Below are positions 612 through 60,438 of a stretch of 64,000 bases of DNA, piece by piece. The stretch comes from Thermoprotei archaeon. Lineage in GTDB: Archaea; Thermoproteota; Thermoprotei; Gearchaeales; WAQG01. The stretch spans positions 34,521-98,520 of the forward strand of contig JAVZOV010000004.1 in NCBI GenBank assembly GCA_038881895.1, in the 5' to 3' direction. Position 1 is the first letter of the stretch, and the number at the start of each line of letters is the position of its first letter. The translations under genes were made by a program, and so were the position numbers. The notes beneath the pieces were generated by a model that had not been told where the DNA came from, did not search any database, and saw only the letters and a list, made by a program, of their open reading frames with translations.

Positions 612-1403
612 TTAGAGTGTTAAAAATCTTAGTTCATTATTATCCTTTACTAATAATGCTCCTGCATATCCACCATGATATCGACTTGAAAATACTGTTA
701 TTACTAATCCATTAAAATCAATTCTATAACCCTCAGGACAAACTTCATGCCCTCTAACTAGCATATACAGTTCATTTTTCTTTAAAAACTTTTCAGCAAC
801 ATCCATTCCAAAGAGATAGATGCCTGAGCCTCGCGGACTAGGCTCAAAGCCTCTAATATCTGGACTAGGATCATTCCAGAGAATCTGAAATGCTATAGGA
901 TCCCTTGGTTCTTCATCACCTTTTTGTATTTCTGTAATTCTAGAAAGATCCTCTACATCACGAGGAATACCACCATGTAATCCTAATACACCGTTCACCT
1001 TTATAGAATATGGCATCACAGAGAATAATTCTACAAACTGATTATAAAATCCAGAACCTAGTTTTGCCAAAATTTCCTCATAAAATCCATAGTAATAATT
1101 AGTAATCGGGCTTTCATGATTACCACGCAACACTATAATGTGTTCTGGATCTCTTAGTTTGGCTGTCAGTATAAGTCCAAGATTATCAAGTCCTGTATCA
1201 CTTCTATCCACATAATCGCCAAGAAATACTATTAAATCAACAACACCCCGATACTCCCGAAGAACTTTCTGTGTAACATCTACAGCGCCATGCGTATCAC
1301 CTACAAAGAGCGCAGATTTAGCAGTAGTCTCTATTAAACTAGGTTCATCCATAAAACGTTGTATTGATTCATGTATGAGATCATCTAAATTATTAAAAAC
1401 CAT
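612..1403 (-). CDS. Ser/Thr protein phosphatase, PPP-family metallophosphoesterase (archaeal PP1-like)
   Basis: GDTHG, GDYVDR and GNHE motifs in canonical order. Listed ORF starts at TTG (1412); an ATG three codons downstream (MVFNNLDD) is the more likely start. Confidence 0.8.
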   Translation of the reverse strand: MVFNNLDDLIHESIQRFMDEPSLIETTAKSALFVGDTHGAVDVTQKVLREYRGVVDLIVFLGDYVDRSDTGLDNLGLILTAKLRDPEHIIVLRGNHESPITNYYYGFYEEILAKLGSGFYNQFVELFSVMPYSIKVNGVLGLHGGIPRDVEDLSRITEIQKGDEEPRDPIAFQILWNDPSPDIRGFEPSPRGSGIYLFGMDVAEKFLKKNELYMLVRGHEVCPEGYRIDFNGLVITVFSSRYHGGYAGALLVKDNNELRFLTL

Positions 1404-1482
1404 TTCTCTCAATAAATAAAAAATAGGCAGCTATTTATTTCTGTATGTATAATTATCTAATGATACATGGTGTGATAATGAG

Positions 1483-2385
1483 ATGTATATGACACGTATA
1501 ACATTAGAATTTATACCCGAATCCACTATTACCATAGATGGTTTTACATCAACAGTATCGAAACTCATACTTAAAAATGTACAGAATTATGAAACTACAA
1601 TTTTAGATATTATTACTAACAATGCATTAAGCAACTTAACAGTATCACCTATCATGAGTAATAATAAGCCCATATATAAATTTCAGAATCCACGAAAAAA
1701 ATCATCGTTAGTTTCACTATATGAGAATAAAAAATATGTCTTTCATGTATCATTTTTATCTAAAAATCCTATTAACGAATTACAAGACTTTCTTGCAAAA
1801 AATATATCAAGCAGTTGGCGCATTTCACTTTATAATACTGACATCCTCTTGGCAGCATCGCAAGTTAAAAGCGTCAATATCAATGAATTGTTAATAAATA
1901 TTACAGGTGATTTCAGGGTAGACTTCATAACACCAACGCAATTTGTAATCAAAATACCAATGCCCACCACAAAATCATGGTTAAGACTATTTCCGCTTTC
2001 TCATACCCTAATATCAAGCATCACATCACACTGGAATAAACATGTTCCAAATGAAATGAAAATCGATGTGGAGAATATAAGTAAAATATCATACAGCTAC
2101 ATACATGAAGCTGGATATCATTTAAACCCAGTAACAATTGTGATACGAGATAACAGCCATAAACACGTGATACGAGGGTTCATAGGTTGGTGTGTATATA
2201 AAGTTGATGAAAGACTCAACCTCAAAACAAGAAACGTTATAGCAAGACTCTTAGCATATGCAGAATTTATCGGTGTTGGTAAAGGAAAAGAAATGGGACT
2301 AGGCATGATAAAAGTGAGACCAGGAAAAATCATACATGAAACACAGAGCGAACAACAAGAAGAAATCATAAAAAATATAGGTTAA
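1483..2385 (+). CDS. Cas6-like RAMP endoribonuclease candidate (orphan, no CRISPR array nearby)
   Basis: C-terminal glycine-rich loop GVGKGKEMGLGMIKV matches the Cas6 G-h-G-x5-G-h-G signature; central FITPTQF motif; length 300 aa. No repeat-spacer array anywhere in the window. Confidence 0.45.
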   Translation: MYMTRITLEFIPESTITIDGFTSTVSKLILKNVQNYETTILDIITNNALSNLTVSPIMSNNKPIYKFQNPRKKSSLVSLYENKKYVFHVSFLSKNPINELQDFLAKNISSSWRISLYNTDILLAASQVKSVNINELLINITGDFRVDFITPTQFVIKIPMPTTKSWLRLFPLSHTLISSITSHWNKHVPNEMKIDVENISKISYSYIHEAGYHLNPVTIVIRDNSHKHVIRGFIGWCVYKVDERLNLKTRNVIARLLAYAEFIGVGKGKEMGLGMIKVRPGKIIHETQSEQQEEIIKNIG

Positions 2386-2462: not shown

Positions 2463-3965
2463 ATGCCAGGTTTTACGGTCTATGGTAAGAACGGAATTGT
2501 TGTGTCACAAAATTATCATGCATCAATGGCTGGGATTAAAATACTTGAGAACGGAGGAAACGCATTCGATGCGGCAATTACAATAAGTTCAGTTCTTTCA
2601 GTAGTAATTCCTCACACTGGTGGATTAGGCGGTGATGGTTTTATACTCGCAATAACACCGGATAGTATTATAGGTTATAATGGTTCAGGTCCTGCTCCTT
2701 CAGGGTTCGATGAAAAGGAATACATAAACATTAAACCAATACGTGGACCACTAACCATTACAATACCAGGCTTAGTAGACTTATGGCGATGGATTTATGA
2801 CAAGTATTGCACAAAAGGTCTTGAAGAACTACTTTCACAAGCAATATCGTTAGCAGTTAACGGATTCCCAGTTAGTGATGAATTGGCGCGCGCTACGGAA
2901 GCTTCGAAAAATACTCTTGCCGCTTATCAAGGTTGGAATAGATTGTACGGAAATCTAAAATCTGGTGATTGGTTCATACAAAAAGATCTAGGTGAGGTAT
3001 TGAAAAAAATAGGTAAATTTGGACCTGAAGAATTTTACAAAGGAGAACTTGCAGGAGAATTAATTAGTGGTTTAAGAGCACAGGATGTGCCGATAGACAT
3101 TAGAGATTTGAGAGTTTATAAAGGCGAACAAGTCAGACCGTTAAGATCAGAATATAGAAATTATGACGTTTATGAATTACCACCCAATACCCAAGGCATT
3201 ACAACACTTGAAATTCTGTCTATGATAGAAGAATCTAATGTTGATAAGTTAGATTTTAACGATACACAAAGAATTGCATTGCAATTAAAAATCGCAGGAT
3301 TAGCGTATGAAGATCGCGATACGTTTTTAGGAGATCCAAGATTTTTCCAAATACCTGTCGAGAAACTTCTCTCTAAAAATTATCTAAGAAACAGAATACA
3401 AAAGAAACAAGGTAATATACTAAAAGATGCCGATACAACATTCTTTGCAGTTGCTGATAGGTTTGGTAACATGGTAGGATTCATTCAAAGTCTCTTTTAC
3501 CCATTTGGGTCAGGAATAGTAGTTAAAGGAATACCGTTTCAAAATAGAGGTGTAGGATTCGCTAAATCCCTCTCATCTCCAAATAGACCAGGTAAAGGCA
3601 GAAGACCCCTCCATACACTTTCAATACTTCTAGCAGAAAAAGGTGAACGAAAACTTATTATTGGATGTGCAGGTGGAGATTTACGACCTCAAATTCATTC
3701 TGAAATACTTGAAAATATTATTAGCTATAACATGAAAATTTCCAAAGCTGTAGACGCACCAAGGTTTATGTTAACTGAGTGGAATAAACACTTTACTGCA
3801 ATTATTGAAGGAAGGTTATCATTACCAAAAAGTAATGAGATAAAAATAGAAACATTACCATATTACAGTAGCAGTGTAGGGATAGCAAACGTAATCGAAT
3901 ATACACAAGGGATGTACGCTGCCACATCTGATCCAAGAAGTGAAGGAGTCGCTATGGCAATATAA
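2463..3965 (+). CDS. ggt: Gamma-glutamyltransferase (Ntn-hydrolase family)
   Basis: TGGLGGDGF motif and putative Thr nucleophile context DTTFFAVADRFGNMV; 500 aa. Confidence 0.8.
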   Translation: MPGFTVYGKNGIVVSQNYHASMAGIKILENGGNAFDAAITISSVLSVVIPHTGGLGGDGFILAITPDSIIGYNGSGPAPSGFDEKEYINIKPIRGPLTITIPGLVDLWRWIYDKYCTKGLEELLSQAISLAVNGFPVSDELARATEASKNTLAAYQGWNRLYGNLKSGDWFIQKDLGEVLKKIGKFGPEEFYKGELAGELISGLRAQDVPIDIRDLRVYKGEQVRPLRSEYRNYDVYELPPNTQGITTLEILSMIEESNVDKLDFNDTQRIALQLKIAGLAYEDRDTFLGDPRFFQIPVEKLLSKNYLRNRIQKKQGNILKDADTTFFAVADRFGNMVGFIQSLFYPFGSGIVVKGIPFQNRGVGFAKSLSSPNRPGKGRRPLHTLSILLAEKGERKLIIGCAGGDLRPQIHSEILENIISYNMKISKAVDAPRFMLTEWNKHFTAIIEGRLSLPKSNEIKIETLPYYSSSVGIANVIEYTQGMYAATSDPRSEGVAMAI

Positions 3966-5123
3966 TCATGTAACTTTCACCTCAATTTTTTGCAGTATTT
4001 TTCTTAGTATGTCGATGGTGTTTCTTATATCATCGTATGTTATCATGTATGGTGGTAAAAATCTAACAGTAGTTACTCCAGCTTTAAGCGATAAGATCTT
4101 TTCCTCTTGAAGTGTCTTTATGATACTTGATGGGTTTGTACGCATATCGATTCCTATCATAAATCCAATTCCTCTAATATCACGCACAATATCAAAATCT
4201 TTTAAATTAACCTTAAGTAGATTAATAAAATCCTTTCCCTTCTCTCTAACATTATTAGTTACATTATCGCTTTTTAAAACTCTTACTGATGCAGTAACAG
4301 CAGCCATAGCAAGAGGATTTCCACCGTATGTACTGCCGTGATCACCTTCATCCAGCTTACTGGCAATCCAATCTGGCATGAATACTGCACTCACTGGAAA
4401 ACCTCCGCCAATGGCCTTACCAGCAGCCATTATATCTGGTTTTGTATTAAAATGTTGATGCGCCCATATTTTTCCAGTCCTTCCAAATCCACTCTGAATT
4501 TCATCTACTATAAGAATACTACCAGTATCATCAGCAATATCCCTCAAAGCTTTCATAAAATCTGGCTGTGCGGGTATAACGCCTCCTTCACCTTGGACTG
4601 GTTCGACTATTATTCCTGCAACAGTATCGTTCACAACCTTTAATGATTCAATATTATTGAATTCAGCAAATATAACATCACTCATAAGGGGTTCGAAAGG
4701 TTCTCTATACTTTTTATTCCATGTAAGGGATAAAGCTGCAAAAGTCCTGCCGTGAAAAGAATTTTTAAAAGCAACAAATTTCTTTCTTTTTGTGACCTTT
4801 TTAGCAATTTTCACTGCCAATTCTATAGCTTCACTACCACTATTTAAAAGAAAAACATTATTAAGGTCATCAGGTTTCACGTATTCAAGTTCATTTAACA
4901 TTTCATCACGTATTGATGATGAGAAAGCTGTAGACAAAGTCATTATTTCGTTCATTTGTCTACTTAAATATTCAATAACAACTTTATTCCTATGACCAAG
5001 AAAAGCCACACCATGCCCAGTATGTAAATCAAGATATTTGACACCATTTTCATCCCATACGTACTGATCCTTACCCTTAACAATTTTAAGTCCTCTATTA
5101 CCAAAAAAACTAATTAATTTCAA
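3966..5123 (-). CDS. lysJ: Class-III aminotransferase, LysJ/ArgD type
   Basis: PLP-dependent aminotransferase fold with a lysine-containing motif ([13 protein letters not shown]); last gene of the lysWXJ unit. Confidence 0.8.
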
Positions 5124-5977
5124 CGTTTAACAGCCTCTACTATTTTTTCTAACAGTTTACCAGAAACGTTGAACCCGGTTACGCGTACAGTATTTTTATA
5201 CTCGGGAATTCCATTAACTTCATCAACTAAATATCCTCGTGATGGGTCTTCGAAAATATCAATACCCAAAAATAGACCACCCACACTTTCTTTAACTTTC
5301 AAAGATAAATCGATTAATTTATCATCAATCTTTAATGGCTCTGCCCTTGCGCCCAGCGCAGTATTTGTTCTCCAATCCTTTTCATTAACCCTGTATATAC
5401 CCACAGGAACTTCATCACCAATTACAAAAATCCTTATATCCCTATTAGGTTTTCTCACATATTCTTGGATGTAAAAGATATTTTTAAACAATGCGTTTGA
5501 ATATTCCTGGTATTCTAAAAGACTTTTTAATGAATTCTCGTCATCAGCTTTCGCAACCATCCGACCCCAACTGCCATTAACCGGCTTAATAACAACAGGA
5601 TATCCAATCTTTTGAGCCAATTTTATAGCTTCATCCCTATTATAAGCTATTCCAGTTCTAGGCACAGGTATATTATTTTTAGCTAATATTGCAGTAGTGT
5701 ATATTTTGTTCTCACATACTTCTAGTACACGGGATGGATTAACAACAAACAATAATTTTGATTCAAAAAGAATAGTAGAAGTGTACGCTCTGCTATGGCT
5801 AACTCCTCTTTGAATCACAGCATTAATATCTAAGTTTAATCCATCATTTATATTAACAAAAAAATCTTTTAGATAAATTGGTGTGATCTTAATTTGCCGA
5901 TTTTTTGCTTCATTGATTATATCATTTTCTTCCCATCGTAAAAAGTCGTATGCTATTCCTAATTTCACTCTCCCCAA
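5120..5977 (-). CDS. lysX: ATP-grasp ligase LysX (alpha-aminoadipate--LysW ligase, RimK-like)
   Basis: RimK/ATP-grasp architecture; TTG start overlapping the lysW stop; sits between lysW and lysJ. Confidence 0.8.
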
Positions 5978-6129
5978 TCCTCTCCAATCTCTGCTAGCTT
6001 CAGTACAAGACCACCATCATTTACATGCACTTCTAATACTGCACCACAACTGTGTTCTATGATTTCTCCTGGTAATGCATCATCTGGAACTTTTACATTT
6101 CCACCACATAATGGGCATCGAGTGATCAT
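5965..6129 (-). CDS. lysW: Amino-group carrier protein LysW (54 aa); below the ORF-track size cut-off
   Basis: Manual translation of complement(5965..6129): [54 protein letters not shown]. Zn-ribbon CPxCG...C.xG and the characteristic C-terminal EDWGE; GGAGGTG Shine-Dalgarno-like motif 7 nt upstream of the ATG. Confidence 0.8.
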
Positions 6130-6138
6130 TGCCGTTGT

Positions 6139-6180
6139 CACCTCCGAGCTCTAATATATTTTGGTACGATAAATAAAAGG
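6139..6180 (-). promoter_or_regulatory. Putative lysW promoter region (TATA-like ttttatttat about 45 nt upstream of the lysW ATG, plus SD-like GGAGGTG)
   Basis: AT-rich TATA-like element and SD-like sequence read on the minus strand upstream of lysW; position fits an internal promoter downstream of lysM. Confidence 0.3.
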
Positions 6181-6228
6181 ATTTTTATTAAAAATTGTTC
6201 GAAATAAAAATAATCCCGCATGTACATG

Positions 6229-6669
6229 TTACAACCACGTTCTTAAAACAATTATACTGTTCGTACCAGAAACTCCCTCAATACTTCTTATAGCATCGAT
6301 GCTTTTATTGACCATTGTAATGTTGTTTCCTCTTATTATAACTAATATGTCATAATCTCCAGTAGTTTCATAAACTGTCTCTACACCATCAATAGCTATG
6401 ATCTTCTTCGAAACCTCTGGTGTACTTATTGGAGGTGTTGTTTTCACCATCACAACTGCCCTTACCTCATTCTTTAGCTCATAATCGATCGTAAATCTTT
6501 TTATTACACCCATTCGTATTAACTTTTCTACTCTCTTTCTTACAGCAGCTTCGCTCACATTTAGCTCTCTTGCTATCACAGTATATGGTGTTCGCACATT
6601 CTTTCTCAAAATACTAAGTATTCTCAAATCCTTCTCATCAACCTTATTCAATAACAGTCCCCCCATCAT
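6229..6669 (-). CDS. lysM: Lrp/AsnC-family transcriptional regulator of the lysine operon (LysM-like)
   Basis: N-terminal HTH (RILSILRKNVRTPYTVIARELNVSEAAVRKRVEKL) plus RAM domain; located between lysZ and lysW as in Sulfolobales lys clusters. Confidence 0.75.
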   Translation of the reverse strand: MMGGLLLNKVDEKDLRILSILRKNVRTPYTVIARELNVSEAAVRKRVEKLIRMGVIKRFTIDYELKNEVRAVVMVKTTPPISTPEVSKKIIAIDGVETVYETTGDYDILVIIRGNNITMVNKSIDAIRSIEGVSGTNSIIVLRTWL

Positions 6670-7435
6670 TTAATGCATTATTTATAGGATCATCCACTAA
6701 ACCAGACGATATTACCACCTTACGCACCCCAGCATTAACAGCTTCAGACCCCATAAGAAGTTTTCTATTCATGCCAGGACTAATCTTAGAGGCCATTTCT
6801 ATTGCTTCATTAGCAGAAAAGTGCTTCACTATTTTATTGTTAAAAATCACACCATCAACGTCAGTAAGAAAAATCAGCTTTTCAACCTTACCGCTTATAG
6901 CTATAACTTTTGCTACTTGATCACCATCAACGTTAAGAGGAACACGTTCAGAAACATCTATAGCCACTGGAGAGATCACAACAACATCAACAAGACTAAG
7001 TAAAGCATTAAGTAAACTGAAATTCACATCATTGATCTTCCCAGTATAGCCACCATCGATGGCTCGCTTACGCCCACGCTCATCAATAATTATAACCTTT
7101 TTCTTTCGAACAGCAGTGAAAAGAGGACCATCAACACCAGTAACACCTATAACCTTTTTACCAAAACCAATTAACATTGACGTAATCATTTTGTTTATTA
7201 AACTCATCACCATAACATAAACATCTAACTCCTCACGAGACGTATAACGACTCACAACACCTTCAGGTGACATAATAAATTTAGGTTCAATACTCATCCT
7301 TTTACTATACTCAGTCACTTGATCTCCACCACCATGAACAAGAATTAGTTTTCCCTGATAAGATACAATACTCTTAACCAACTTATCCAAATTATTTTTA
7401 ATAACCCTACCGCCAACTTTCACAACAATAACCAT
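6644..7435 (-). CDS. lysZ: Amino-acid kinase family protein, LysZ/ArgB type (LysW-gamma-aminoadipate kinase)
   Basis: VVKVGG...VHGGG amino-acid kinase N-terminus; operon context. Confidence 0.8.
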   Translation of the reverse strand: MVIVVKVGGRVIKNNLDKLVKSIVSYQGKLILVHGGGDQVTEYSKRMSIEPKFIMSPEGVVSRYTSREELDVYVMVMSLINKMITSMLIGFGKKVIGVTGVDGPLFTAVRKKKVIIIDERGRKRAIDGGYTGKINDVNFSLLNALLSLVDVVVISPVAIDVSERVPLNVDGDQVAKVIAISGKVEKLIFLTDVDGVIFNNKIVKHFSANEAIEMASKISPGMNRKLLMGSEAVNAGVRKVVISSGLVDDPINNALNDGGTVIE

Positions 7436-7438
7436 TGT

Positions 7439-8482
7439 TCACACCGGCCTTAAAGGAGGCATCATGAGACCTTCCCCTTCATCAAAACCCATAGATATGT
7501 TAAACGCTTGAACCGCCTGTCCGGCACCACCCTTAATTAGATTATCTAACGCTGCAAACATGGTAACTCTGTTAACACGCTTCTCAAAGGCAAACCCAAT
7601 ATCAGCAAAATTACTCCCAACCACATACTTTGGATCTGGATACGGAGGAAAACCTTTAACAATACGAATAAACTTTTTATCTTTATAAAATCCTGAGACA
7701 ATTTTTAATAAATCCAAATTACTCAATGCATTTTTAACCCAAATATGTGCAGAAGCCAACACACCTCTCACACTGCCTACAGCATGAGGAATAAGGCTTA
7801 CCTTCACAACATTCTTAGAAAATCGATTTAATTCTTGTTCAACCTCAGCTACGTGCCTATGTCCCTCAGCTTCATAAGGTCTAATAGCATGTTCACGTTC
7901 CGGATGATGACTACCCATAGTAGGTTTAGAACCACTCTCGCTGCTGCCAGCTTTTATATCAACAATAACATTATCATAAATTAAACTATTAGCTGCGAGA
8001 GGTGCCAAGGCTAGTATAGAGGCAGTTGCATTACAACCCGGAGATGCTATCAAGCTAGCATTCCGCAACTCATCAAAATGTAATTCAGGTAGCCCATAAA
8101 CAGCCTTAGTCAGGAGATCAGGTTGAGGATGTTCGATTCCATACCAAATCTTATAGAGCTCAGGATCTTTAAGCCTATAATCAGCACTAAGATCAATCAC
8201 TCGCAAACCAACATTTAAAAGGTTTGGAACCAAAGTCATCGAGACACCATGTGGTACAGACAAAAACACTACATCCGATAGGTTCGTTAACTTATTTATA
8301 TCATATTCTGAAAACTTCAAAGAATAAAATCCTCTTAAGTTTGGATGCACAAAAGTTATAGGTTTTCCAACGTATTCTTTAGAAGTCACATAAGTCACTT
8401 CGACTTTCGAATGACTAGCTAAGATCCTTAATAACTCTCCTCCATTATAACCCGAACCACCAACTATGGAAACTCTAACCAT
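7439..8482 (-). CDS. lysY: N-acetyl-gamma-glutamyl-phosphate reductase-type enzyme, LysY/ArgC
   Basis: NAD(P)-binding VSIVGGSGYNGGEL N-terminus and catalytic Cys motif SPGCNATA; the likely start is the ATG at 8482 (MVRVSIVGG), inside the longer listed ORF. Confidence 0.8.
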   Translation of the reverse strand: MVRVSIVGGSGYNGGELLRILASHSKVEVTYVTSKEYVGKPITFVHPNLRGFYSLKFSEYDINKLTNLSDVVFLSVPHGVSMTLVPNLLNVGLRVIDLSADYRLKDPELYKIWYGIEHPQPDLLTKAVYGLPELHFDELRNASLIASPGCNATASILALAPLAANSLIYDNVIVDIKAGSSESGSKPTMGSHHPEREHAIRPYEAEGHRHVAEVEQELNRFSKNVVKVSLIPHAVGSVRGVLASAHIWVKNALSNLDLLKIVSGFYKDKKFIRIVKGFPPYPDPKYVVGSNFADIGFAFEKRVNRVTMFAALDNLIKGGAGQAVQAFNISMGFDEGEGLMMPPLRPV

Positions 8483-8760
8483 AAATACTAAAAATAACTC
8501 CAAAATAAAACATTTTTGTTACATTAAGAACAAAAAGAAAAAACAATAAAACAAATAAAACATTAAAAGCAAACATCACAAGTTTTACAAAAATGAATTA
8601 CACTACTAGCTTGTTATACTAAAGGAAGGAACTATAACCTCAAGTTGAATACCTCAATTATACTAACAATATTATCACGGAACTAAAGTTTAGTCTCTTG
8701 CTGAATTTCTGTAAAGGGGAAATAGGAAATAAAATTTTCTTAAAAATTTCATTTTTATAA

Positions 8761-9012
8761 TGATGAGTCCCAGAAAGCTTAGAGCTTTGCTGGGATGAAT
8801 GGGCAAAGTTTATGATGTTAACCCACTAATTTAAATGTTCCAGATGTGAATGGAAAGAATTTCGTCTGAATTGGAGCGAAAACATAGTCCATAGGATAAT
8901 AAGCTTTATGAGATAGTTGAGTTGTGAGACTCGCAAACCAGCAAATAAAGAAATGAGTGTGAAGTCCATCCTAAACGCTGGGAGTCCCTGCTTTAGCTGT
9001 GGAGAGGTTCGC
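8761..9012. repeat. Interspersed ~240-bp repeat, copy A (near-identical to copy B at 20053-20295)
   Basis: Shares a 5' palindrome (AAAGCTtagAGCTTT) followed by ctgggatgaatgggcaaag, and a 3' core gcaaaccagcaaataaagaaatgagtgtgaagtccatcctaaacgctgg, with copy B. Confidence 0.6.
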
Positions 9013-9310
9013 TACATTGACATTCTCCGTGGCTGAAGCCAGGAGATTCTCGGTTTGTCGTGGGGCCTCCACTCATCCTACCGAGTTCGGGCTGTGCCAA
9101 GGCAGCCCCTGCCATGAGCATATAGCCCATAGCCCGCTCGCTGGAACCCCCCCACCCGTCTTGGATGGGAGCCTTATTCCAGCTTTCGGACGTCCCATCC
9201 ACATCCGAGCGACACGCTCAAGGAGATGGTGGACTTGGATGAATATAAACTTAACGGCGATTCATCTCCACGACTGAAGTCGGAAGCCTTCTCGCCGAAA
9301 GAGTGGTAAC
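9013..9310 (-). pseudogene. tnpB: Decayed tnpB 3'-end remnant. The first ~125 bp is homologous to the 3' end and right end of the intact tnpB at 52797-52921; the rest is GC-rich with no intact ORF
   Basis: 9017-9137 aligns at high identity with 52801-52921, differing mainly in a ~22-nt central segment. The minus-strand frame encodes ...RAMGYMLMAGAALAQPELG, the same C-terminal peptide as the intact TnpB. No TnpB-like upstream reading frame. GC content is far above the flanks. Confidence 0.55.
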
Positions 9311-20052: not shown

Positions 20053-20295
20053 TGTCAAGAAAGCTTAAAGCTTTGCTGGGATGAATGAGCAAAAGTTTAG
20101 ACACGAAGCTAGCTCACTAAATTCTAGATGTTCCAGATGCAATGGAATAACATCTGAATTGGAGTGAAAACATAGCCCATAGGTTAACGAGATCTATGAG
20201 ATAGCGGAGCTGTGAGCACTGCAAACCAGCAAATAAAGAAATGAGTGTGAAGTCCATCCTAAACGCTGGAAGTCCTTGCTTTAGCTGTGGAGTGG
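20053..20295. repeat. Interspersed ~240-bp repeat, copy B
   Basis: Near-identical ends to copy A (8761-9012) with a more divergent middle; 5' perfect palindrome AAAGCTTaAAGCTTT. Confidence 0.6.
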
Positions 20296-20348
20296 CTCAC
20301 AATAGCTATCTTTATATTTTTAAAAAAAGAAGATCTATTGATGATAAT

Positions 20349-30691: not shown

Positions 30692-30783
30692 TGGGGCCGG
30701 CCGGATTTGAACCGGCGATCCCCAGGGCCCGAGCCTGGTACTCTAGGTTTTTAGCTTCCTAGACCAAGCTAGACTACGGCCCC
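30692..30783 (-). tRNA. tRNA-Pro (anticodon CGG) with a ~16-nt insertion (probable non-canonical intron) in the D-arm; no encoded CCA
   Basis: Reverse complement folds as acceptor GGGGCCG/CGGCCCC, intact anticodon stem-loop CCAGG-CUCGGGC-CCUGG, T-arm GCCGG-UUCAAAU-CCGGC; the D-arm region is 38 nt instead of ~19. Confidence 0.6.
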
Positions 30784-36620: not shown

Positions 36621-37988
36621 ATGGAAATGAAACTTTATTATGACAAAGGCACGATAGTATTAGTTAGCAGGGATCGTATTCCATTACAACTGGTAAAATT
36701 CTTTAAATTTGACCCTAGAATCAATGCGTATAGAAGCTTAGCAATGTATTATCCTGTTATCACATCAATACTTCGAAATTTAAAGATTAGTTTTCTAGAT
36801 AATGTCTTTTATCCTATGGGTTGCCTAAAATTTAATAAACGATTTGATGTGAAATTAAGAGGTTATCAGAGTAGAGCACTAAGCAACTGGATGAATACTG
36901 ATAAACGTGGAATAATTGTGCTACCTACAGGTTCAGGTAAGACACTTATAGGAATTATGGCGATTCTAGAGTTAAAAGAACCAACATTAGTAATCACACC
37001 AACAATAGAGTTGATGGATCAATGGGCTTTGCTTATTCAAAAATATCTTGATGTGGATGTAGGATTATATGGTGGTGGTGATAAAGAATTAAAGTGTATC
37101 ACTGTAACTACATACAGTTCTGCATACCTTAATGCTGAATTAATTGGCAATAGGTTTAAGTTAATAATATTCGATGAAGTACACCATTTACCTAGTGAAG
37201 GTTATAGACAGATTGCTGAACTTTCAGCCGCTCCGTATAGAATGGGCCTTACAGCCACACCAGAGAGAGAGGATGAGGCGCATAAAGATTTAGATCAATT
37301 AGTTGGCCCGATAGTATATAGAAGTGGTGTGAAAGATCTCGCAGGCTCATATTTAGCGAATTTTGAAATTAAAAGGATCTACGTGCCATTGACTAAAGAA
37401 GAATATGCAGAATATAAAAAGCTGAGTAGTATATATGAGGAATATTTCAAGAAACGTGGCTGGACCTTACGGTCATTAAGGGATTTCGAGAAATTTATAA
37501 TGAGAACGGGTAATGATATGAAAGCACGTAAAGCACTTCTAGCATGGAGTAGGGCTAGGTCTATTGCACTAAACTCTTCCACTAAAATGGAAAAATTACG
37601 TGAACTATTACGTTATCACAGAGGCGAACGCATTATCATATTCACTGAACATAATGAACTTGTTAAGCATATTTCTAATGAATTATTAATACCAATCATA
37701 ACACATAAAACTAGCGATGATGAAAGAAAAGCTGTCATGAATGGTTTCCGAACAGGAATATTCAGTACTATAGCAACTAGTAAGGTTCTCGAAGAAGGCA
37801 TCGATGTACCAGATGCAAACATTGCTATAATTCTTAGCGGGTCAGGTAGCAAACGAGAGTTCATACAAAGGCTTGGCAGAATACTAAGACCTAAGGAAGG
37901 TAAAAAAGCAATACTCTATGAAATAATAAGCTCAGGAACAAAAGAAGTACGCGTATCAAAGAAACGATCAAAAGCATTAGGTGAATAA
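36621..37988 (+). CDS. xpb: XPB/Rad25-type SF2 helicase
   Basis: Walker A PTGSGKT, Walker B DEVHH, RED motif (TATPEREDEAH); 455 aa. Confidence 0.75.
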   Translation: MEMKLYYDKGTIVLVSRDRIPLQLVKFFKFDPRINAYRSLAMYYPVITSILRNLKISFLDNVFYPMGCLKFNKRFDVKLRGYQSRALSNWMNTDKRGIIVLPTGSGKTLIGIMAILELKEPTLVITPTIELMDQWALLIQKYLDVDVGLYGGGDKELKCITVTTYSSAYLNAELIGNRFKLIIFDEVHHLPSEGYRQIAELSAAPYRMGLTATPEREDEAHKDLDQLVGPIVYRSGVKDLAGSYLANFEIKRIYVPLTKEEYAEYKKLSSIYEEYFKKRGWTLRSLRDFEKFIMRTGNDMKARKALLAWSRARSIALNSSTKMEKLRELLRYHRGERIIIFTEHNELVKHISNELLIPIITHKTSDDERKAVMNGFRTGIFSTIATSKVLEEGIDVPDANIAIILSGSGSKREFIQRLGRILRPKEGKKAILYEIISSGTKEVRVSKKRSKALGE

Positions 37989-39429
37989 AATGCTTCCAAC
38001 ACAACTACTACGTGTACAAATACGCGGAGGATACATTAAACCAGTTTATGCCGAACTATCCCATGAGAATTTATATCTTGCAGAAAAATTAATCAATATA
38101 TTTAAAAGTTTTATTAATAAAAAACTTAAAGAACTAGAAGATGAACTTAACGAAGCTGAAACAATAGCTGAAAGTGAAGGATATAATTATAAATTCATTA
38201 AAGGATTGATAACCTTGCTAAAACGCAGACTAACTATTAAGGAGACAACTCTCTCCTATGATCCCTTATTTATAAGGCTAGAAATCTTTAAAACAGTAAA
38301 TCAGCTTTATAGAGGATTTGCTTTAACACAAGAAGAACGTAAAAACGTAATAGATCTAGTAGCACAAAAGCTTAACATAAACCATGATGATGTAGAAAAC
38401 GGTTTCAGAGCAGTTTATGAAGAAGAAAACACGATCGATAACTTTCAAGAGATATCACCAGAAGAACTCATAAAACTTTACAATCTATCATTGACACAAA
38501 CATTACTTTTTAAATGCACAAATCTTGTTGCAGATATAAAAACAACAGGTCATAAAACCAGGCAAATCTTATGGAGTATAAAAAGAAATGGTCTACTTTA
38601 CATGGCTGAGAAAATTAATGAATCTGTACGCATAACAATAGATGGGCCTGCATCGATAATAAAGCAAACTGAACGCTATGGAACAAACTTAGCTAAAACG
38701 TTACCATTAATAATTTCTGCAGACCATTGGAACATTGAGGCATCAATAATTAGGAAAACCAGATATAAAAATAAACACTTAACTTACAAATTTATAACTA
38801 ATGATACAAACAAACACCTATATCCAGTTCAATTACTAGAAGGCACTGTGATATATGACAGTTCTCTAGAAGAAGATTTTCATAAAAGATTTAACACATT
38901 AAAAAGCGATTGGACTATTATTAGAGAGCCAGAACCATTAGTGGTCGGGACAAAAATATTCATACCAGACTTTGTTTTTATCAGAAATAATGAGAAAATA
39001 TATCTCGAGATCGTAGGATTTTGGACAAAAGAATACATAAAAAGAAAGATAGAGAAAATGAGAGATTTGAAAAATGTAAAAATGATAATAGCAATAGACG
39101 AAAGTATTGACGAATTCAAAACAGAAGAATTACCTCACACAATAATAAAATTTAAACGTTCATTACCATCATACGAAGTACTCAAAACACTTAACTCTTT
39201 ATCTCCAAAAAACATTACCAAAGAAATGACAGAACTAAAAATAACAGGTGAATCGCAATTAATTAATGTTAACTTAGATGGTATGACGCTTTCAGATGCA
39301 ATTGAAGTATTTAAAACACACAACATAAGTGACGCTAATCTTGAAATAATATTAGAGAAACTTGGCTATAAAGTAGAATGGAATACTCTTGACCCTAACA
39401 AGACAATAATACGAAAAATCAAAAAATAA
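37981..39429 (+). CDS. bax1: Bax1-like nuclease partner of XPB (DUF790)
   Basis: Translationally coupled to xpb (8-nt overlap); size and conserved position fit archaeal XPB-Bax1 pairs. Confidence 0.6.
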   Translation: MNKMLPTQLLRVQIRGGYIKPVYAELSHENLYLAEKLINIFKSFINKKLKELEDELNEAETIAESEGYNYKFIKGLITLLKRRLTIKETTLSYDPLFIRLEIFKTVNQLYRGFALTQEERKNVIDLVAQKLNINHDDVENGFRAVYEEENTIDNFQEISPEELIKLYNLSLTQTLLFKCTNLVADIKTTGHKTRQILWSIKRNGLLYMAEKINESVRITIDGPASIIKQTERYGTNLAKTLPLIISADHWNIEASIIRKTRYKNKHLTYKFITNDTNKHLYPVQLLEGTVIYDSSLEEDFHKRFNTLKSDWTIIREPEPLVVGTKIFIPDFVFIRNNEKIYLEIVGFWTKEYIKRKIEKMRDLKNVKMIIAIDESIDEFKTEELPHTIIKFKRSLPSYEVLKTLNSLSPKNITKEMTELKITGESQLINVNLDGMTLSDAIEVFKTHNISDANLEIILEKLGYKVEWNTLDPNKTIIRKIKK

Positions 39430-42499: not shown

Positions 42500-44722
42500 T
42501 CAAACCAGCATCCTCTCAAATGTTGATGGTAATGGTTCTAGTACTTTTAGTTTCTTGGAAGCCACTCCTTCAAGCACCTTTAGCGCATTTTTCCTAGATA
42601 AAATATGATTATTATTTCCACAATAAGGAGAGTATACACAACGTGGACAACCATCTTCACAATCACACGTTGAGATTATTTGAAACGTACGTTGAAAGAC
42701 CAAATCAAATCTTTTCATTAATAATTTTGAAAGCCCTGATCCGCCTTGTACACCATCATAAATCACTATTAATCCATCAGGATTACTTATTCCACCTAGC
42801 TCTCCTGATCCAGCTCCGATAATCATTTGGGCAGAAGATATAAGAGTATGTTCTATTGCATGAAACGCTTCACCATTCATTAGATCACTCCAGTCATTAT
42901 AGCCTTGCAACCTTAATATTAGACCCTTTGTTTTAAACCTGTAGTTAACTGGATGTTCAAGAATTTTTTCATTTATAATTTCATTGGTTACCATGCGTTT
43001 TATTACATATCCATGAACATTATTCTCTATCTCCATTTTTCCATAAAGTATCTTTCCATCCAAAAATGTGCTTTCATCTAGAGGTTTGAAATTAACTGGA
43101 AAACTTGATTTTAAAGGAAGAGTATAAAAACTAAAATCGTATGGAAGCTGTGTGACTAATGCCCTGTATGGTTTACTAGATATATTAAGTTCAATAACCT
43201 TGTAAATACGGCCACCATGAAAATATACAGCCTCTGGATGAAGCTCCCCCAATGCCATCGGTAATTCTCTATCTCCAATTTCTTGATTATTTTCATTAAT
43301 TATAATTACCCTATCACCTGCACCCCTAATACTAGTTTTATAAAATATCCTCTTACCATCAGGTGTTGGATAATAATTCTTGCCTCGTTTTATTAACAGA
43401 CCATCACTGACTAGACTATCAACTATTTCTTTATTAAATAGTCTATCATCTTCTCTCAATGACTTATCAATAGAGGCAGAGAGAATTTGATGTCTCTGGA
43501 CATCCTCATTGGTGAGATCCAATGGTAATTCATCAGGAGCTTGATAATAATACTCGTGAGGTTTACGAGCATAATAGGAACTAATAGGATCCTCACCAAG
43601 AACCATTATTACATATCCCTCATCATGCCTTCCACATCTTCCAGCTCTATGTATATATCTGGTGTAAGTTGGCGGTATGCCATCTAAGACTACAGCATCG
43701 AGATCACCAATATCTATACCAAGCTCCAATGTAGGAGTAGATATGACAGCCATTAACTCACCAGTCCTTAACATACGCTCAACTTTACTCCTCTCAATCC
43801 TTGATAGTCCTGCCCTATGCACACCAACGTTAATACCGTACTTTCTTGACAAAAAAGCAAGGTATTCAACAGTTCTATGACTATCACCAAAAACCAACGT
43901 CTTTAAACCAAGGTTAACAAGATTTTTTACAATACGCAAAACCTCAATATGCTTAGAAACCTCATCAGACTTTACCATCACATGCATAAGCCTCCCTTTC
44001 CTTCCATAACTCTCCACAACAGAAATAGAGCGATCAAATAACATTGATGCAAATGACTGCGCATTACCTATAGTTGCTGTAGAACCTATAAACTGTATCT
44101 CATTAAACAAACGAGCTAGTCGACGAATCAAATACGCTACATGAGCACCAAACACTCCATTATAGACGTGCATCTCATCAAAGACAACAAACTTCAAATT
44201 AGAAATAATCTCCCTAAACCTAGGTATCGATAAGGAAAAATGTATCATGTCAGGATTAGAAAGTAATACTTTCGGAGGCTTAGCAAATAACTTTTTTCTC
44301 TCAGATTCTGTAGTATCGCCATCATAGATCCCAACATTAAGACCTAACGATCTTGATGTATAAAACTGAACTCTATGTAACTGGTCAGCAGTTAACGCCT
44401 TGGTAGGATAAAGTATAAGAGCGTTCACACCTGGCTCACTCTCTCTTATCACTCTGTTTAGGATAGGTATAAGAAAAGCCTCTGTCTTACCCATACCAGT
44501 ACCACTCACTATCACTACATCATGACCCCTATCAATTAACTGCATACTTCGCAATTGAAACTCATAAAGATGTTTAATACCTTTAACTCTTAACGCAACC
44601 TTTAACGATTCATCTATATCAATATCATCTATAGAAGGCCCTAGTTCAGGGCCTTTTGGCTCCTCAATCCACGAATATATCACACTTTTGTTGAGCCTAA
44701 GCTCTTTAATTATATCAAACAT
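42500..44722 (-). CDS. DEAD/DEAH-box helicase with C-terminal DUF1998 zinc-binding domain (YprA/MrfA-like)
   Basis: Walker A SGTGMGKTEAF, DEAD-type Walker B FDEMH, helicase C-domain HRAGRCGR, C-terminal CDCEDGCPRCV...C cluster. Confidence 0.75.
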   Translation of the reverse strand: MFDIIKELRLNKSVIYSWIEEPKGPELGPSIDDIDIDESLKVALRVKGIKHLYEFQLRSMQLIDRGHDVVIVSGTGMGKTEAFLIPILNRVIRESEPGVNALILYPTKALTADQLHRVQFYTSRSLGLNVGIYDGDTTESERKKLFAKPPKVLLSNPDMIHFSLSIPRFREIISNLKFVVFDEMHVYNGVFGAHVAYLIRRLARLFNEIQFIGSTATIGNAQSFASMLFDRSISVVESYGRKGRLMHVMVKSDEVSKHIEVLRIVKNLVNLGLKTLVFGDSHRTVEYLAFLSRKYGINVGVHRAGLSRIERSKVERMLRTGELMAVISTPTLELGIDIGDLDAVVLDGIPPTYTRYIHRAGRCGRHDEGYVIMVLGEDPISSYYARKPHEYYYQAPDELPLDLTNEDVQRHQILSASIDKSLREDDRLFNKEIVDSLVSDGLLIKRGKNYYPTPDGKRIFYKTSIRGAGDRVIIINENNQEIGDRELPMALGELHPEAVYFHGGRIYKVIELNISSKPYRALVTQLPYDFSFYTLPLKSSFPVNFKPLDESTFLDGKILYGKMEIENNVHGYVIKRMVTNEIINEKILEHPVNYRFKTKGLILRLQGYNDWSDLMNGEAFHAIEHTLISSAQMIIGAGSGELGGISNPDGLIVIYDGVQGGSGLSKLLMKRFDLVFQRTFQIISTCDCEDGCPRCVYSPYCGNNNHILSRKNALKVLEGVASKKLKVLEPLPSTFERMLV

Positions 44723-52796: not shown

Positions 52797-52960
52797 AATT
52801 GACATTCTCCGCGGCTGAAGCCGGGAGATTCTCGGTTCCTCAGGCTCAAGCCTTCATCGTACCGAGTTCGGGCTGTGTCAAGGCAGCCCCTGCCATGAGC
52901 ATGTAGCCCATAGCCCGCTTAAGGATGTTCGTTGCTCCATTATAGTCTGCGTTGCATTGG
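52797..52960 (-). ncRNA. Predicted omega-RNA (reRNA) scaffold overlapping the tnpB 3' end and right end
   Basis: Inference from the TnpB family's known architecture; the same ~125-bp segment is what survives in the remnant at 9013-9137. Extent not determinable from sequence alone. Confidence 0.35.
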
Positions 52961-53922
52961 ATTCCGCAGTTTTGGCATTTGAAGAGGCCTCCGACTCGAA
53001 GCCCCCTATGCCCGCATTTATGGCACAGCTTTGAAGTGTTTCTCTCGCTTATCTTAACAACTTTGATTCCGCGCCATCTCGCCTTATACTCTATGAATTG
53101 GCTTAGCCTATGGTATGGGAATCCGTTGTTGAGCTTTCTTTTGAAAGTCCTACCTCTGCCGTTTCGTCTTATGCCCTTGAGTTTTCCAAGAATTATCATG
53201 GAGTCGTTCGCCAAAGCTTCGTTGACTATGGCTCTGCTAATCTTATGCAGGATGTCGCTAACAACTCTTCTCTCTTTACGCCCAATCTTCTTTATGGTTC
53301 TGTAGGCCCTCTTTAAAGCTAAAGACCTTCTAAGGTAGAAGTAGTGCCCCTTAACCCTTCTAAGCTCCCTCCCATAGAACTTCGGTCTCGGATTGGTTGA
53401 GTTGACTGTTGTGGCTATCCAGCGTATCCCCATATCTATAGCTAAAGTCGACTTAGGATTTCTCTCCTCGACTTCTTTTTCAACAGTTATGTGGACGAAC
53501 CACTCATTACCTTTCTTTACGATTTTTGCCTCTCTGCAAATCATGTCATCAGTTATTGGTTCATGGGTCTTTATAGGGACGTTTATTCCGCCTCTAACCC
53601 CATAAATTGGAATCTTGAGCCAATAAGGCGTCAGCTTGGTGTCCGCTCTGTACATGTCCCTTCTAAGGATTAGCGGGTATTCCTTGTTAGGCTTAACATT
53701 TCCAAGCCTCTTTAGAAGTCTGTCAGCCTGTTGCTTTGTAGCGGAATAAAGTGGAACAGACTTGTCTCCATGCAAATAGCGTTGCCAATTCTCGTATTCC
53801 CTTCTAAGAAGCTCTTCCTTGCCTTTGCGAAGTTCAAGAACCTTTGCCTTAATGGTTTTCTTAGCCTTCATGAGCGACTCGCCCATAGAAAAATTAACTG
53901 ACAAGTATTTAAACGCATTCAT
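52846..53922 (-). CDS. tnpB: TnpB (IS200/IS605 OrfB; RuvC-like RNA-guided nuclease family)
   Basis: RuvC-I LAIDMGIRW, RuvC-II Glu region, zinc finger CHKCGHRG...CQNCGIQC, RuvC-III NADYNGATNI; GC content clearly above flanking genes. An internal Met (MKAKK...) may be the true start. Confidence 0.85.
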   Translation of the reverse strand: MNAFKYLSVNFSMGESLMKAKKTIKAKVLELRKGKEELLRREYENWQRYLHGDKSVPLYSATKQQADRLLKRLGNVKPNKEYPLILRRDMYRADTKLTPYWLKIPIYGVRGGINVPIKTHEPITDDMICREAKIVKKGNEWFVHITVEKEVEERNPKSTLAIDMGIRWIATTVNSTNPRPKFYGRELRRVKGHYFYLRRSLALKRAYRTIKKIGRKERRVVSDILHKISRAIVNEALANDSMIILGKLKGIRRNGRGRTFKRKLNNGFPYHRLSQFIEYKARWRGIKVVKISERNTSKLCHKCGHRGLRVGGLFKCQNCGIQCNADYNGATNILKRAMGYMLMAGAALTQPELGTMKA

Positions 53923-57745: not shown

Positions 57746-59050
57746 TTGATTAAAATGGCTGGAGCATTAGGTGGTAGGGTACCTGAAGAGATAGAAAGCG
57801 CAATGTTAAAAATAGATATTGGTTTTAAGACAATGGACGATATTGATTTTGAAGATAAAGTAGTGTTGCTTCGTACCGACATGAATTTACCGCTAAATCC
57901 TAAGACTAGCATGCCGATTGATCTTACTCGCATGAAGGTACTTGCAGAAACAACATTAAAAGAACTATTAGTTAGAGGAGCAAGAGTTGCTATACTCACA
58001 CACCAAGGTAGGCCTGGTGATCCTGAATTCACAACAACAGATTTACATGCAAAATTATTAGCAAAAATGTTAAAAACACGAGTACACTATGTACCAGACC
58101 TCTATGGTCCACTGGCAATAGAGGCAATGAAAAAATTAAGAAAAGGCGAATATAGAATAGTAATGCTTGAGAACGTAAGGACCGACCCCGATGAAATGAT
58201 CAAAAGACCCCCCGAAGAGCAAGCTAAAACTAAACAAGTTCAAACATTATCAATGTTAGCGGACATATATGTTAATGATGCTTTTGCAGCATGCCACAGA
58301 AGTAACGTATCATTAACAGGATATCCAGTAGTGATGCCAGCTGTAGGAGGTAGAGTACTCGAATGGGAAATGAGAGCACTTACTTGGGTACTTCGCTATA
58401 GTGAAGCACCTAGAATTTTTATTTTAGGTGGTGCAAAATTAGAGGATGCAACAGCCATAACTGACCATGTCCTCTCTACTAAGAAAGCCGATTTTGTTGC
58501 TATGGCAGGTCTAATCGCCAACCTTTTCTTAGCAGCAAAAGGAGTTGATCTAGGAGAAATAAATATGAAATTCTTAGAACGTAAAGGAGGATTACTTCTC
58601 ATGGAAGATGTGAAAAAAGTACTCGAAAAATACAAAGACTCCATAATACTACCTACAGATGTAGCTGTAGAAACTGGTAATGGAATACGAGCCGATATTC
58701 CTATAGGATTACTTCCAATCAACTCCCCTATAAAAGATATTGGCATGTTAACCGCTGAAACTCTTGAACAAATAATTTTCAAAAGCAGAACTGTAGTAAT
58801 TAGCGGTCCAGCCGGAGTCTATGAGGAACCCGCGTTTATTTATGCTACAAAAAGAATATTCAAAGCAGCAGTCGAATCAAATGCTTTCTCCGTAGTGGGA
58901 GGAGGGCACACAGTCGCTGCATTGAACATGATGGGATTAGCAAGCAAATTTAGTCATGTCAGCACTGGTGGTGGAGCATTGATAGAAATGTTAATGGAAA
59001 GACCACTACCCGGTGTAGAAGCTTTAAAATTAGGCGCAAAAAATATTTAA
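57746..59050 (+). CDS. pgk: Phosphoglycerate kinase
   Basis: PGK N-terminal pattern (...DKVVLLRTDMNLP...) and C-terminal GGGA motif region; conserved gap-pgk arrangement; true start may be an internal Met. Confidence 0.8.
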   Translation: MIKMAGALGGRVPEEIESAMLKIDIGFKTMDDIDFEDKVVLLRTDMNLPLNPKTSMPIDLTRMKVLAETTLKELLVRGARVAILTHQGRPGDPEFTTTDLHAKLLAKMLKTRVHYVPDLYGPLAIEAMKKLRKGEYRIVMLENVRTDPDEMIKRPPEEQAKTKQVQTLSMLADIYVNDAFAACHRSNVSLTGYPVVMPAVGGRVLEWEMRALTWVLRYSEAPRIFILGGAKLEDATAITDHVLSTKKADFVAMAGLIANLFLAAKGVDLGEINMKFLERKGGLLLMEDVKKVLEKYKDSIILPTDVAVETGNGIRADIPIGLLPINSPIKDIGMLTAETLEQIIFKSRTVVISGPAGVYEEPAFIYATKRIFKAAVESNAFSVVGGGHTVAALNMMGLASKFSHVSTGGGALIEMLMERPLPGVEALKLGAKNI

Positions 59051-60252: not shown

Positions 60253-60438
60253 ATGGAAGAAGAACTGCTTAGACCAAAGGATGTTGCAAAGATATTCAAC
60301 ATCTCAGTTAAAACGCTCTGGAAGTGGCAGAGGAAAGGCATTATTAGAGCAGTTAAACTTCCAACTGGCAAGCTCCGCTACCCGAGGAGCGAAGTTGAGA
60401 GGCTATGGAAGCAGTTAAAAGCTACAGGATCCCAATAG
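60253..60438 (+). CDS. Small MerR/excisionase-type HTH protein (61 aa), resembling only the DNA-binding N-terminus of an IS607-type TnpA
   Basis: MEEELLRPKDVAKIFNISVKTLWKWQRKGIIRAVKLPTGKLRYPRSEVERLW; overlaps the tnpB start. The listed 176-aa ORF is a spurious upstream extension overlapping htpX. Confidence 0.55.
   Translation: MEEELLRPKDVAKIFNISVKTLWKWQRKGIIRAVKLPTGKLRYPRSEVERLWKQLKATGSQ

Follow-up and report, generated by a model that had tools for sequence, protein, structure and literature searches.

A solitary cas6 gene retained among housekeeping genes in an uncultured lineage of Thermoproteota

The DNA analysed here, referred to below as the window, is a stretch of 64,000 nucleotides from contig JAVZOV010000004.1 of a Thermoprotei archaeon (assembly GCA_038881895.1), in which a stand-alone cas6 gene is located at positions 1483 to 2385 of the forward strand. 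The product of this gene is a genuine, intact Cas6-family protein, and an identical protein is already annotated as Cas6 at NCBI. What the present analysis adds is a solo, core-genome Cas6 subfamily, defined by conserved synteny, selection, vertical descent and a predicted active-site region that has been remodelled. The most likely reading, held with moderate confidence, is that the protein acts in trans on CRISPR-repeat-type RNA derived from arrays elsewhere in the genome, with altered chemistry.

Results

Identity of the gene product

The gene begins with ATG, ends with TAA and encodes 300 amino acids.

1483 to 2385, forward strand: stand-alone cas6, an open reading frame (ORF) of 300 amino acids plus stop codon, identified by profiles, a structural model and an identical NCBI protein

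A first-pass annotation, made from the sequence alone, had described this ORF as Cas6-like and had proposed that it be searched with hidden Markov models of Cas6. The description was borne out by that search, in which the 300-residue product scored 69.7 bits against the NCBIfam equivalog TIGR01877 cas_cas6 (cut-off 58.65, E = 4.4e-19), 53.8 bits against Pfam CRISPR_Cas6 (PF10040, gathering threshold 25) and 29.2 bits against Pfam Cas6_N (PF17952, gathering threshold 27), all curated Cas6 thresholds of NCBIfam and Pfam being passed. Furthermore, 17 PADLOC Cas6 models matched the product, the best of which was Cas6a (E = 2.6e-26). The closest solved structures by sequence are those of the Sulfolobus (Saccharolobus) solfataricus proteins Sso1437 (3ZFV, E = 3.6e-9) and Sso2004 (4ILL). 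NCBI entry MEM3833442.1, encoded on a 160-kb contig of a metagenome-assembled genome (MAG), is 100% identical and carries the label 'CRISPR-associated endoribonuclease Cas6 [Thermoprotei archaeon]'.

The gene was also encountered on a 3055-bp MAG contig of another NCBI assembly, where it is split into two 'partial' coding sequences of 168 and 131 amino acids (P0006 and P0008), both 100% identical to the window protein and one labelled 'hypothetical protein'. The split is probably an artefact of assembly or annotation. The organism name given for that contig, 'Nitrososphaeria archaeon', illustrates that taxonomic names for this lineage are inconsistent.

Isolation from CRISPR arrays and other cas genes

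No CRISPR repeat-spacer array was detected in the 64-kb window by Tandem Repeats Finder, by a repeat search, by Rfam or by a k-mer array detector, the last of which recovered the arrays in five control loci. One of these controls is an unrelated bacterial locus drawn in by the genome scan (L010, Arachnia sp. MAG, JBDHZH010000028.1, 10651-12624), in which a weak Cas6-like match (21% identity) adjoins a 28-repeat CRISPR array. When all 61 ORFs of the window were scanned with PADLOC, cas6 was the sole true cas gene in the 64 kb. The other Cas-named matches were rejected as ordinary genes: two IS605-type TnpB genes (52846-53922 and 60405-61592) account for the matches to 'Csx1' and 'Cas12f', and XPB (36621-37988) and an MrfA-type DEAD helicase (42500-44722) for those to 'Cas3'. 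The window cas6 is therefore encoded beside neither an array nor another cas gene, as the first-pass annotation had stated for both. The orphan status is supported for every orthologous locus fetched.

Conservation, selection and descent

Five full-length orthologue groups were found, with identities of 65-81%, all from uncultured hot-spring archaea. Among GTDB species representatives only one carries the gene, the MAG Thermoprotei archaeon KM4324-16. In every orthologous locus fetched the gene order is NTP-transferase/PGM, phosphatase (reverse strand), cas6 (forward), gamma-glutamyltranspeptidase (GGT, forward) and lysJ-lysX-lysW, and the phosphatase/cas6/GGT arrangement is common to five species groups. 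The phosphatase-cas6 pairing is present in each of these loci, including one (L021) in which the genes further upstream differ and the pair is nevertheless kept.

The ratio of nonsynonymous to synonymous substitution rates (dN/dS), calculated by the Nei-Gojobori method, was 0.12-0.18 for cas6 compared with 0.05-0.11 for four neighbouring genes. The dS of cas6 matches that of GGT, phosphatase, LysJ and LysX pair by pair (0.71 against 0.51-0.74 between the window and locus L001). Since dS approaches saturation in the deeper pairs (1.2-1.3), the dN/dS of 0.14 for the window and L001 is the most reliable value. The reading frame is intact in all six orthologue groups, with 298-300 codons, and neither frameshifts nor premature stop codons were seen among them. 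Because dN/dS is low, which indicates purifying selection, and dS equals that of the neighbours, cas6 is an old, functional gene, co-inherited vertically with housekeeping genes; it belongs to the core genome and is not a remnant.

When 1.84 billion representatives were searched exhaustively with a profile, P0046 and P0047, from uncultured Thermoproteota, were the nearest proteins outside the orphan clade (32-33% identity, 155-160 bits). A metagenome scan made with P0046 gave no match. These two and the next placeable relatives, P0041 and P0043, are all canonical, being located in type I-A operons and/or beside arrays. The P0047 gene closes a Csa5-Cas7-Cas5-Cas8a-Cas3 operon and is followed by an array approximately 215 bp downstream, for P0046 the array lies 86 bp downstream, and P0041 and P0043 lie within complete type I-A loci with arrays. 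The orphan gene differs from these relatives in neither ending such an operon nor sitting 86-215 bp from an array. The array repeats of all four relatives end in ATTGAAAG or ATTGAAAT, those of P0046 and P0047 being GTGAACCTCCGAGAGAGGATTGAAAT and GAATCTTATTAAAAGAGAATTGAAAG. A crude neighbour-joining tree recovers the orphan clade as a monophyletic group whose sister is P0046. By the genomic setting of these relatives and by the tree, the orphan Cas6 is derived from array-linked type I-A Cas6 enzymes. The relatives P0046, P0047, P0041 and P0043 retain an SK..K helix motif, a KP motif and a G-x-G-[KR]-S-R loop, unlike the orphan clade, while P0047 shares with it a similarly short hairpin ('KKT-VIRG').

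Predicted fold and conserved motifs

A structural model was built with AlphaFold2 from a 42-sequence alignment, giving a predicted local distance difference test score (pLDDT) of 84.5 and a predicted template modelling (TM) score of 0.83; the alignment of the six clade sequences alone gave a model with a pLDDT of only 34.9. The model consists of two tandem RRM/ferredoxin-like (RAMP) domains, as the first-pass annotation had anticipated for a Cas6. In a comparison with the PDB, the top 35 matches were all Cas6 proteins or domains, led by 4ILL and 3ZFV (both E ~1e-17, TM ~0.7; for 4ILL, E = 9e-18 and TM 0.69/0.74). The input alignment includes Sulfolobales Cas6 sequences, so the fold match is not independent of sequence homology. 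Lack of a profile match together with an unrelated fold had been named beforehand as grounds for abandoning the assignment; what was found is a set of profile matches and the fold of Cas6. The elements of the protein are as follows.

1483 to 1887, forward strand: N-terminal RRM/ferredoxin-like domain, residues ~1-135 (Pfam Cas6_N, residues 6-100; model)
1549 to 1590, forward strand: helix alpha-1 with K27 (1561-1563) and T24 (1552-1554), placed by three alignments
1630 to 1635, forward strand: S50-N51 in place of the 'K-P' motif that contains K51 of SsoCas6, from alignment columns
1912 to 2322, forward strand: C-terminal RRM/ferredoxin-like domain, residues ~144-280 (Pfam CRISPR_Cas6, residues 146-276)
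1924 to 1944, forward strand: family motif F-x-TPT of the C-terminal domain, with F148 and P151 invariant across the alignment
2272 to 2304, forward strand: glycine-rich loop GVGKGKEMGLG with K267, K269 and E270 (2290-2292), from the alignment
2320 to 2382, forward strand: acidic C-terminal tail PGKIIHETQSEQQEEIIKNIG, residues 280-300, conserved within the clade

The beta-alpha-beta elements of the N-terminal domain are modelled as strand 2-12, helix 23-47, strand 85-93, helix 98-108 and strand 119-132. Both motifs named in the first-pass annotation are present, the central TPTxF motif as FITPTQF at residues 148-154 and the glycine-rich loop at residues 264-274. The latter displays the pattern G-x-G-x5-G-x-G near the C-terminus, in which G264, G266, G272 and G274 are all invariant. 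The RG-x-GW motif is also kept in the orphan clade. Beyond the loop, 26 residues remain in the orphan clade against a median of 12 among relatives. In this tail E286, E290, E293, E294, I296, K297, I299 and G300 are invariant within the clade, and a helix is predicted at 287-299 with low pLDDT. The net charge of the tail is -1 to -2, and it is attached to a strongly basic core, the isoelectric point being 8.7-9.7 in the clade against a family median of 9.75. Such a core is consistent with retained RNA binding.

Neighbouring genes and putative promoters

The first-pass annotation had placed the gene between a protein phosphatase and a gamma-glutamyltransferase, and both neighbours were recovered by Pfam.

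612 to 1412, reverse strand: PPP/Metallophos phosphatase, divergent from cas6 (PF00149, 91.3 bits)
1413 to 1482, no strand assigned: putative divergent promoter region for the phosphatase (reverse) and cas6 (forward), containing TATA-like boxes rich in A/T and, ahead of the ATG, a GGTG element
2463 to 3965, forward strand: GGT (PF01019, 329.9 bits)

The 70 nucleotides of 1413-1482 show a mean column identity of 92% in five loci from four species groups, whereas the genes on either side differ at 46-60% of their synonymous sites. The TATA-like boxes within this region would act as promoters. An inverted repeat rich in A/T (AAATAAA...TATTTATTT) in the same region may have a regulatory role for both genes. 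Because GGT has its own conserved TATA-like element upstream and is separated from cas6 by 77 to 241 nucleotides, depending on the species, cas6 is probably monocistronic.

The phosphatase, cas6 and GGT genes border a LysW-type lysine/arginine biosynthesis cluster at 3966-8503, which comprises lysJ, lysX, an AsnC-type regulator, an amino-acid kinase and a semialdehyde dehydrogenase. Regarding the host, the phosphoglycerate kinase (PGK) encoded at 57746-59050 has a single match at 95% identity, otherwise only uncultured MAG relatives at 66-72%, and then approximately 50% identity to Bathyarchaeia. These identities therefore place the host in a deep Thermoproteota lineage without cultured members.

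Discussion

Comparison of the active-site region with SsoCas6-1

Among solved structures the best match in both sequence and structure is S. solfataricus Cas6-1 (Sso1437, 3ZFV; Sso2004, 4ILL), a histidine-independent, dimeric crenarchaeal Cas6, referred to here as SsoCas6. Mutagenesis of that enzyme identified K28 as its most important residue (loss of more than 200-fold), while mutation of K25, K51, R231 or R269 each caused a loss of at least 10-fold (approximately 40-fold for K51A); the enzyme works without a catalytic histidine and does not depend absolutely on any one residue of the active site (PMC3652601). The orphan Cas6 and SsoCas6 have in common the tandem RRM, F-x-TPT, RG-x-GW, the glycine-rich loop and the K28 equivalent, and both are without a catalytic histidine at the canonical place. 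They differ in that identity over the structural alignment is just 16-19%, that K25 has become T/I and K51-P52 has become S-N, that the R231 hairpin is shorter and its position variable, that the loop reads GKGKE in place of GRSRG, and that the orphan protein possesses an additional acidic tail and is encoded outside a cas cluster.

The residues were mapped through alignments in which identity is 17-33%, with agreement among three alignments on K25, K28, K51 and the loop; in the PDB numbering of the Sso chain, the index equals the native number plus 6. K28 corresponds to K27 of the window protein and is retained, as K in five of the six clade members and R in the other (basic in 129/154 relatives). 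R269 corresponds to K269, which is K or R in the clade (R/K in 133/154 relatives), and K267 and K269 are kept as basic residues of the loop. The R231 column contains H, S or R in the clade, beside the invariant K227, and R/K in 115/154 relatives; R231 of the window protein itself aligns with the structural RG arginine, R234 of the Sso protein. The clade is also invariant at K31, H174, H183 and H208. The set of supporting basic residues around the scissile phosphate, K25, K51 and R231, is not kept in the orphan clade. As judged from these alignments, the active-site region of the clade is remodelled.

Probable action in trans on CRISPR-repeat RNA

The two possibilities offered by the first-pass annotation, action in trans on a distant array and recruitment to another RNA, remain the two leading hypotheses, the former being the most likely. 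The ancestor would have been the histidine-independent Cas6 of a crenarchaeal type I-A system, whose gene would have left its CRISPR-cas locus long ago and then been fixed in the core genome and inherited vertically within a narrow lineage of uncultured Thermoproteota. Produced as a free protein from a monocistronic gene, the present-day Cas6 would act in trans by binding one particular RNA; the likeliest target is RNA of the CRISPR-repeat type, made from arrays at other sites of the genome. Cleavage of the repeat RNA would leave a 5' handle, a site-specific cut in repeat RNA with an 8-nt 5' handle being the mark of a Cas6 that processes precursor CRISPR RNA. More speculatively, the conserved acidic tail at the C-terminus may be a peptide on which a partner docks, for instance an effector complex. 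Features for RNA binding have been kept, namely K27, K267/K269 and the RG-x-GW motif. As a precedent, the Cas6 of type I-A and III systems works as a free enzyme with multiple turnover, and many archaea combine several effector modules with only one cas6 (PMC4041471, PMC5965381).

Several observations weigh against action on repeat RNA. Neither an array nor another cas gene occurs between approximately -10 kb, as covered by the orthologous loci, and +62 kb, as covered by the window, and none was found within 10 kb on either side in loci L001-L009, L013-L016 and L021. A search of the 64-kb window with four repeats taken from the nearest canonical relatives yielded no solitary CRISPR-repeat-like element, the best match having at least 6 mismatches; ATTGAAAG occurs 6 times there against 4.5 +/- 2.1 expected, always within ORFs. 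In the predicted active-site region, K25 of SsoCas6 is lost, being replaced by T24 (T/I in the clade), at a position that is basic in 104/154 relatives. K51-P52 is likewise lost, its place being taken by S50-N51 without variation in all 6 orphan proteins, although the K51 column is K/R in 132/154 relatives and the adjoining column P in 126/154. Both K25 and K51 are missing in 16 relatives, all of them distant, and in none of the 55 nearest. E270 is found inside the glycine-rich loop in 6/6 orphan proteins and is without counterpart, an acidic residue occurring in the eight loop columns of 0/154 relatives. In the exhaustive search, the orphan clade formed one cluster at 616 bits, the next protein following at 160 bits, and in the neighbour-joining tree no internal branch is longer than that of the clade (0.73; median 0.07). 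A long branch and a drop in score outside the clade are typical of a change in function. Finally, a fixed, core-genome Cas6 amid transient CRISPR-cas modules is unusual.

With the K25 and K51 equivalents missing, a variable R231 position and a glutamate in the RNA-binding loop, the chemistry is probably remodelled and slower. As no single residue of SsoCas6 is absolutely essential, these changes need not abolish cleavage by the orphan Cas6.

With respect to its location, cas genes away from arrays are common, 12% to 28% of cas loci being 'isolated' (PMC5294841), and solo cas4 genes have been catalogued in Sulfolobales (PMC7694759). Those surveys deal with loci of at least three cas genes or with Cas4, unlike the present case. 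A literature search, in which open-access coverage was incomplete, returned no account of a lone cas6 that has become stably fixed among housekeeping genes in several species.

Possible recruitment to a non-CRISPR RNA

The other leading hypothesis is that the protein has been recruited to host RNA. In one form, tentatively entertained here, a domesticated Cas6 that came from a type I-A locus would have been remodelled by the loss of two catalytic lysines and the gain of a loop glutamate and an acidic docking tail, and would now bind or process a host non-CRISPR RNA in a sequence-specific manner. A complete departure from CRISPR immunity, leaving an exapted, sequence-specific housekeeping binder that processes or stabilises a non-CRISPR host RNA, is somewhat doubtful. 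The gene is old, core-genome and vertically inherited inside a lysine/arginine biosynthesis neighbourhood, its longest internal branch was followed by purifying selection, and the remodelled active site, the unique loop glutamate and the conserved, clade-specific tail would all suit a new role. A precedent, and a model for the gain of a non-array substrate, is provided by the paralogue S. solfataricus Cas6-3 (Sso1422), which also cuts ncRNA60, an RNA from outside the CRISPR arrays that contains a repeat-like site and whose gene adjoins that of Cas6-3 (PMC4041471). In contrast to the orphan cas6, however, the Cas6-3 gene is still located inside a CRISPR-cas region with the ncRNA gene adjoining, and no repeat-like element lies near the window cas6. 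No candidate substrate emerged among the flanking intergenic regions, where no conserved non-coding element was found beyond the promoters, from the 64-kb search for repeat-like elements or from a dispersed repeat. Moreover, a canonical substrate probably exists in the host, because most thermophilic archaea carry CRISPR arrays.

The dispersed repeat is an intergenic family of approximately 150 nucleotides with three copies in the window, at 440-611 (core 478-550), 8860-9020 and 20148-20308, which share 71-86% identity. It has no Rfam match at E<=1, and RNAalifold predicted a long-range stem with four compensatory pairs from these three sequences only. The first-pass annotation had regarded it as a possible substrate of the Cas6. 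None of the 20 fetched loci contains the conserved core CATCCTAAACGCTGG, and the family was rejected as a conserved partner of cas6, the 478-550 copy being missing from every orthologous locus. It could be a genome-specific MITE (miniature inverted-repeat transposable element) or small-RNA family.

Possible binding without productive cleavage

It is rather unlikely that the protein is a non-catalytic or very slow paralogue, which would bind repeat RNA without productive cleavage and act as a chaperone, a competitor or a regulator of CRISPR RNA supply. Such a role would agree with the loss of two of the five residues important in SsoCas6, variation at a third, and an acidic residue in the loop of an RNA-binding scaffold that has kept its positive charge. 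The Pyrococcus horikoshii protein has been termed a non-catalytic Cas6 homologue (PMC3902920), and this protein (3QJJ) and the P. furiosus Cas6-related protein (3UFC) are among the fold matches, resembling the orphan protein in combining the Cas6 fold with altered catalytic residues. In Thermus thermophilus, a Cas6 associated with type III is reported to act as a negative regulator (PMC12102369). The Pyrococcus homologues, however, belong to another Cas6 subfamily, in which it is a histidine triad that is missing (TM ~0.46-0.50). The orphan clade is without the K25 and K51 equivalents but has the K28 equivalent. This most important residue and the basic residues of the loop have been kept under selection, and SsoCas6 with single substitutions keeps residual activity (PMC3652601). 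Furthermore, the invariant K31, K227 or H174, H183 and H208 could compensate for the residues lost.

Remaining alternatives

A two-gene module, in which cas6 and the divergent PPP-family phosphatase would be, for example, co-regulated via the shared promoter region, is improbable. The pair and its 70-nt intergenic region are indeed kept in all sub-branches, including L021, but the surrounding region is wholly syntenic, so that adjacency says little, and the nearest Cas6 relatives have no phosphatase neighbour. To our knowledge, there is no mechanistic link between PPP phosphatases and Cas6. That cas6, as the sole cas gene left in the region, is a decaying, non-functional remnant of a lost CRISPR-cas locus is hardly credible, being ruled out by the dN/dS values with dS up to 1.3, the intact frame in every orthologue group and the conserved promoter region.

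Other features of the window

The two IS200/605-type tnpB genes (52846-53922, reverse strand; 60405-61592, forward strand) match Pfam OrfB_IS605 and a Cas12f1-like TNB domain. A fragment of 123 nucleotides at 9016-9138 is 95% identical to 52798-52919, which comprises the 3' end of a tnpB and downstream sequence, and abuts one copy of the dispersed repeat. Omega/reRNA guides are usually encoded at the 3' end of tnpB or downstream of it.

A tRNA-like gene at approximately 30692-30783 (reverse strand) was missed by ARAGORN and detected by Rfam at 30699-30758 (31 bits; gathering threshold 29). Its acceptor stem GGGGCCG...CGGCCCCA, T-arm GGTTCAAATCC and additional bases in the 5' half suggest an intron at a non-canonical position, such positions being common in Thermoproteota. 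At 36621-39429 the XPB helicase gene is followed by a gene for a DUF790 (Bax1-like nuclease) protein, a typical archaeal repair pair.

Biological significance

Cas6 proteins are compact, highly specific RNA-binding nucleases that are widely reused as tools. If the host simply has arrays elsewhere that are cut normally, the gene described here would be an ordinary Cas6 gene at an unusual place. Otherwise, a Cas6 lineage long maintained by selection away from CRISPR loci, its active site remodelled, may illustrate a single 'housekeeping' Cas6 at the service of CRISPR modules that are gained and lost, or it may represent the natural recruitment of a CRISPR component to ordinary RNA metabolism; a domesticated Cas6, if confirmed, would mean that an enzyme for processing CRISPR RNA has been stably exapted to the core RNA metabolism of the cell. 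Each of these last two outcomes would lengthen the list, now short, of documented fates of cas genes outside immunity, and a thermostable Cas6 variant, possibly of new specificity, would become available.

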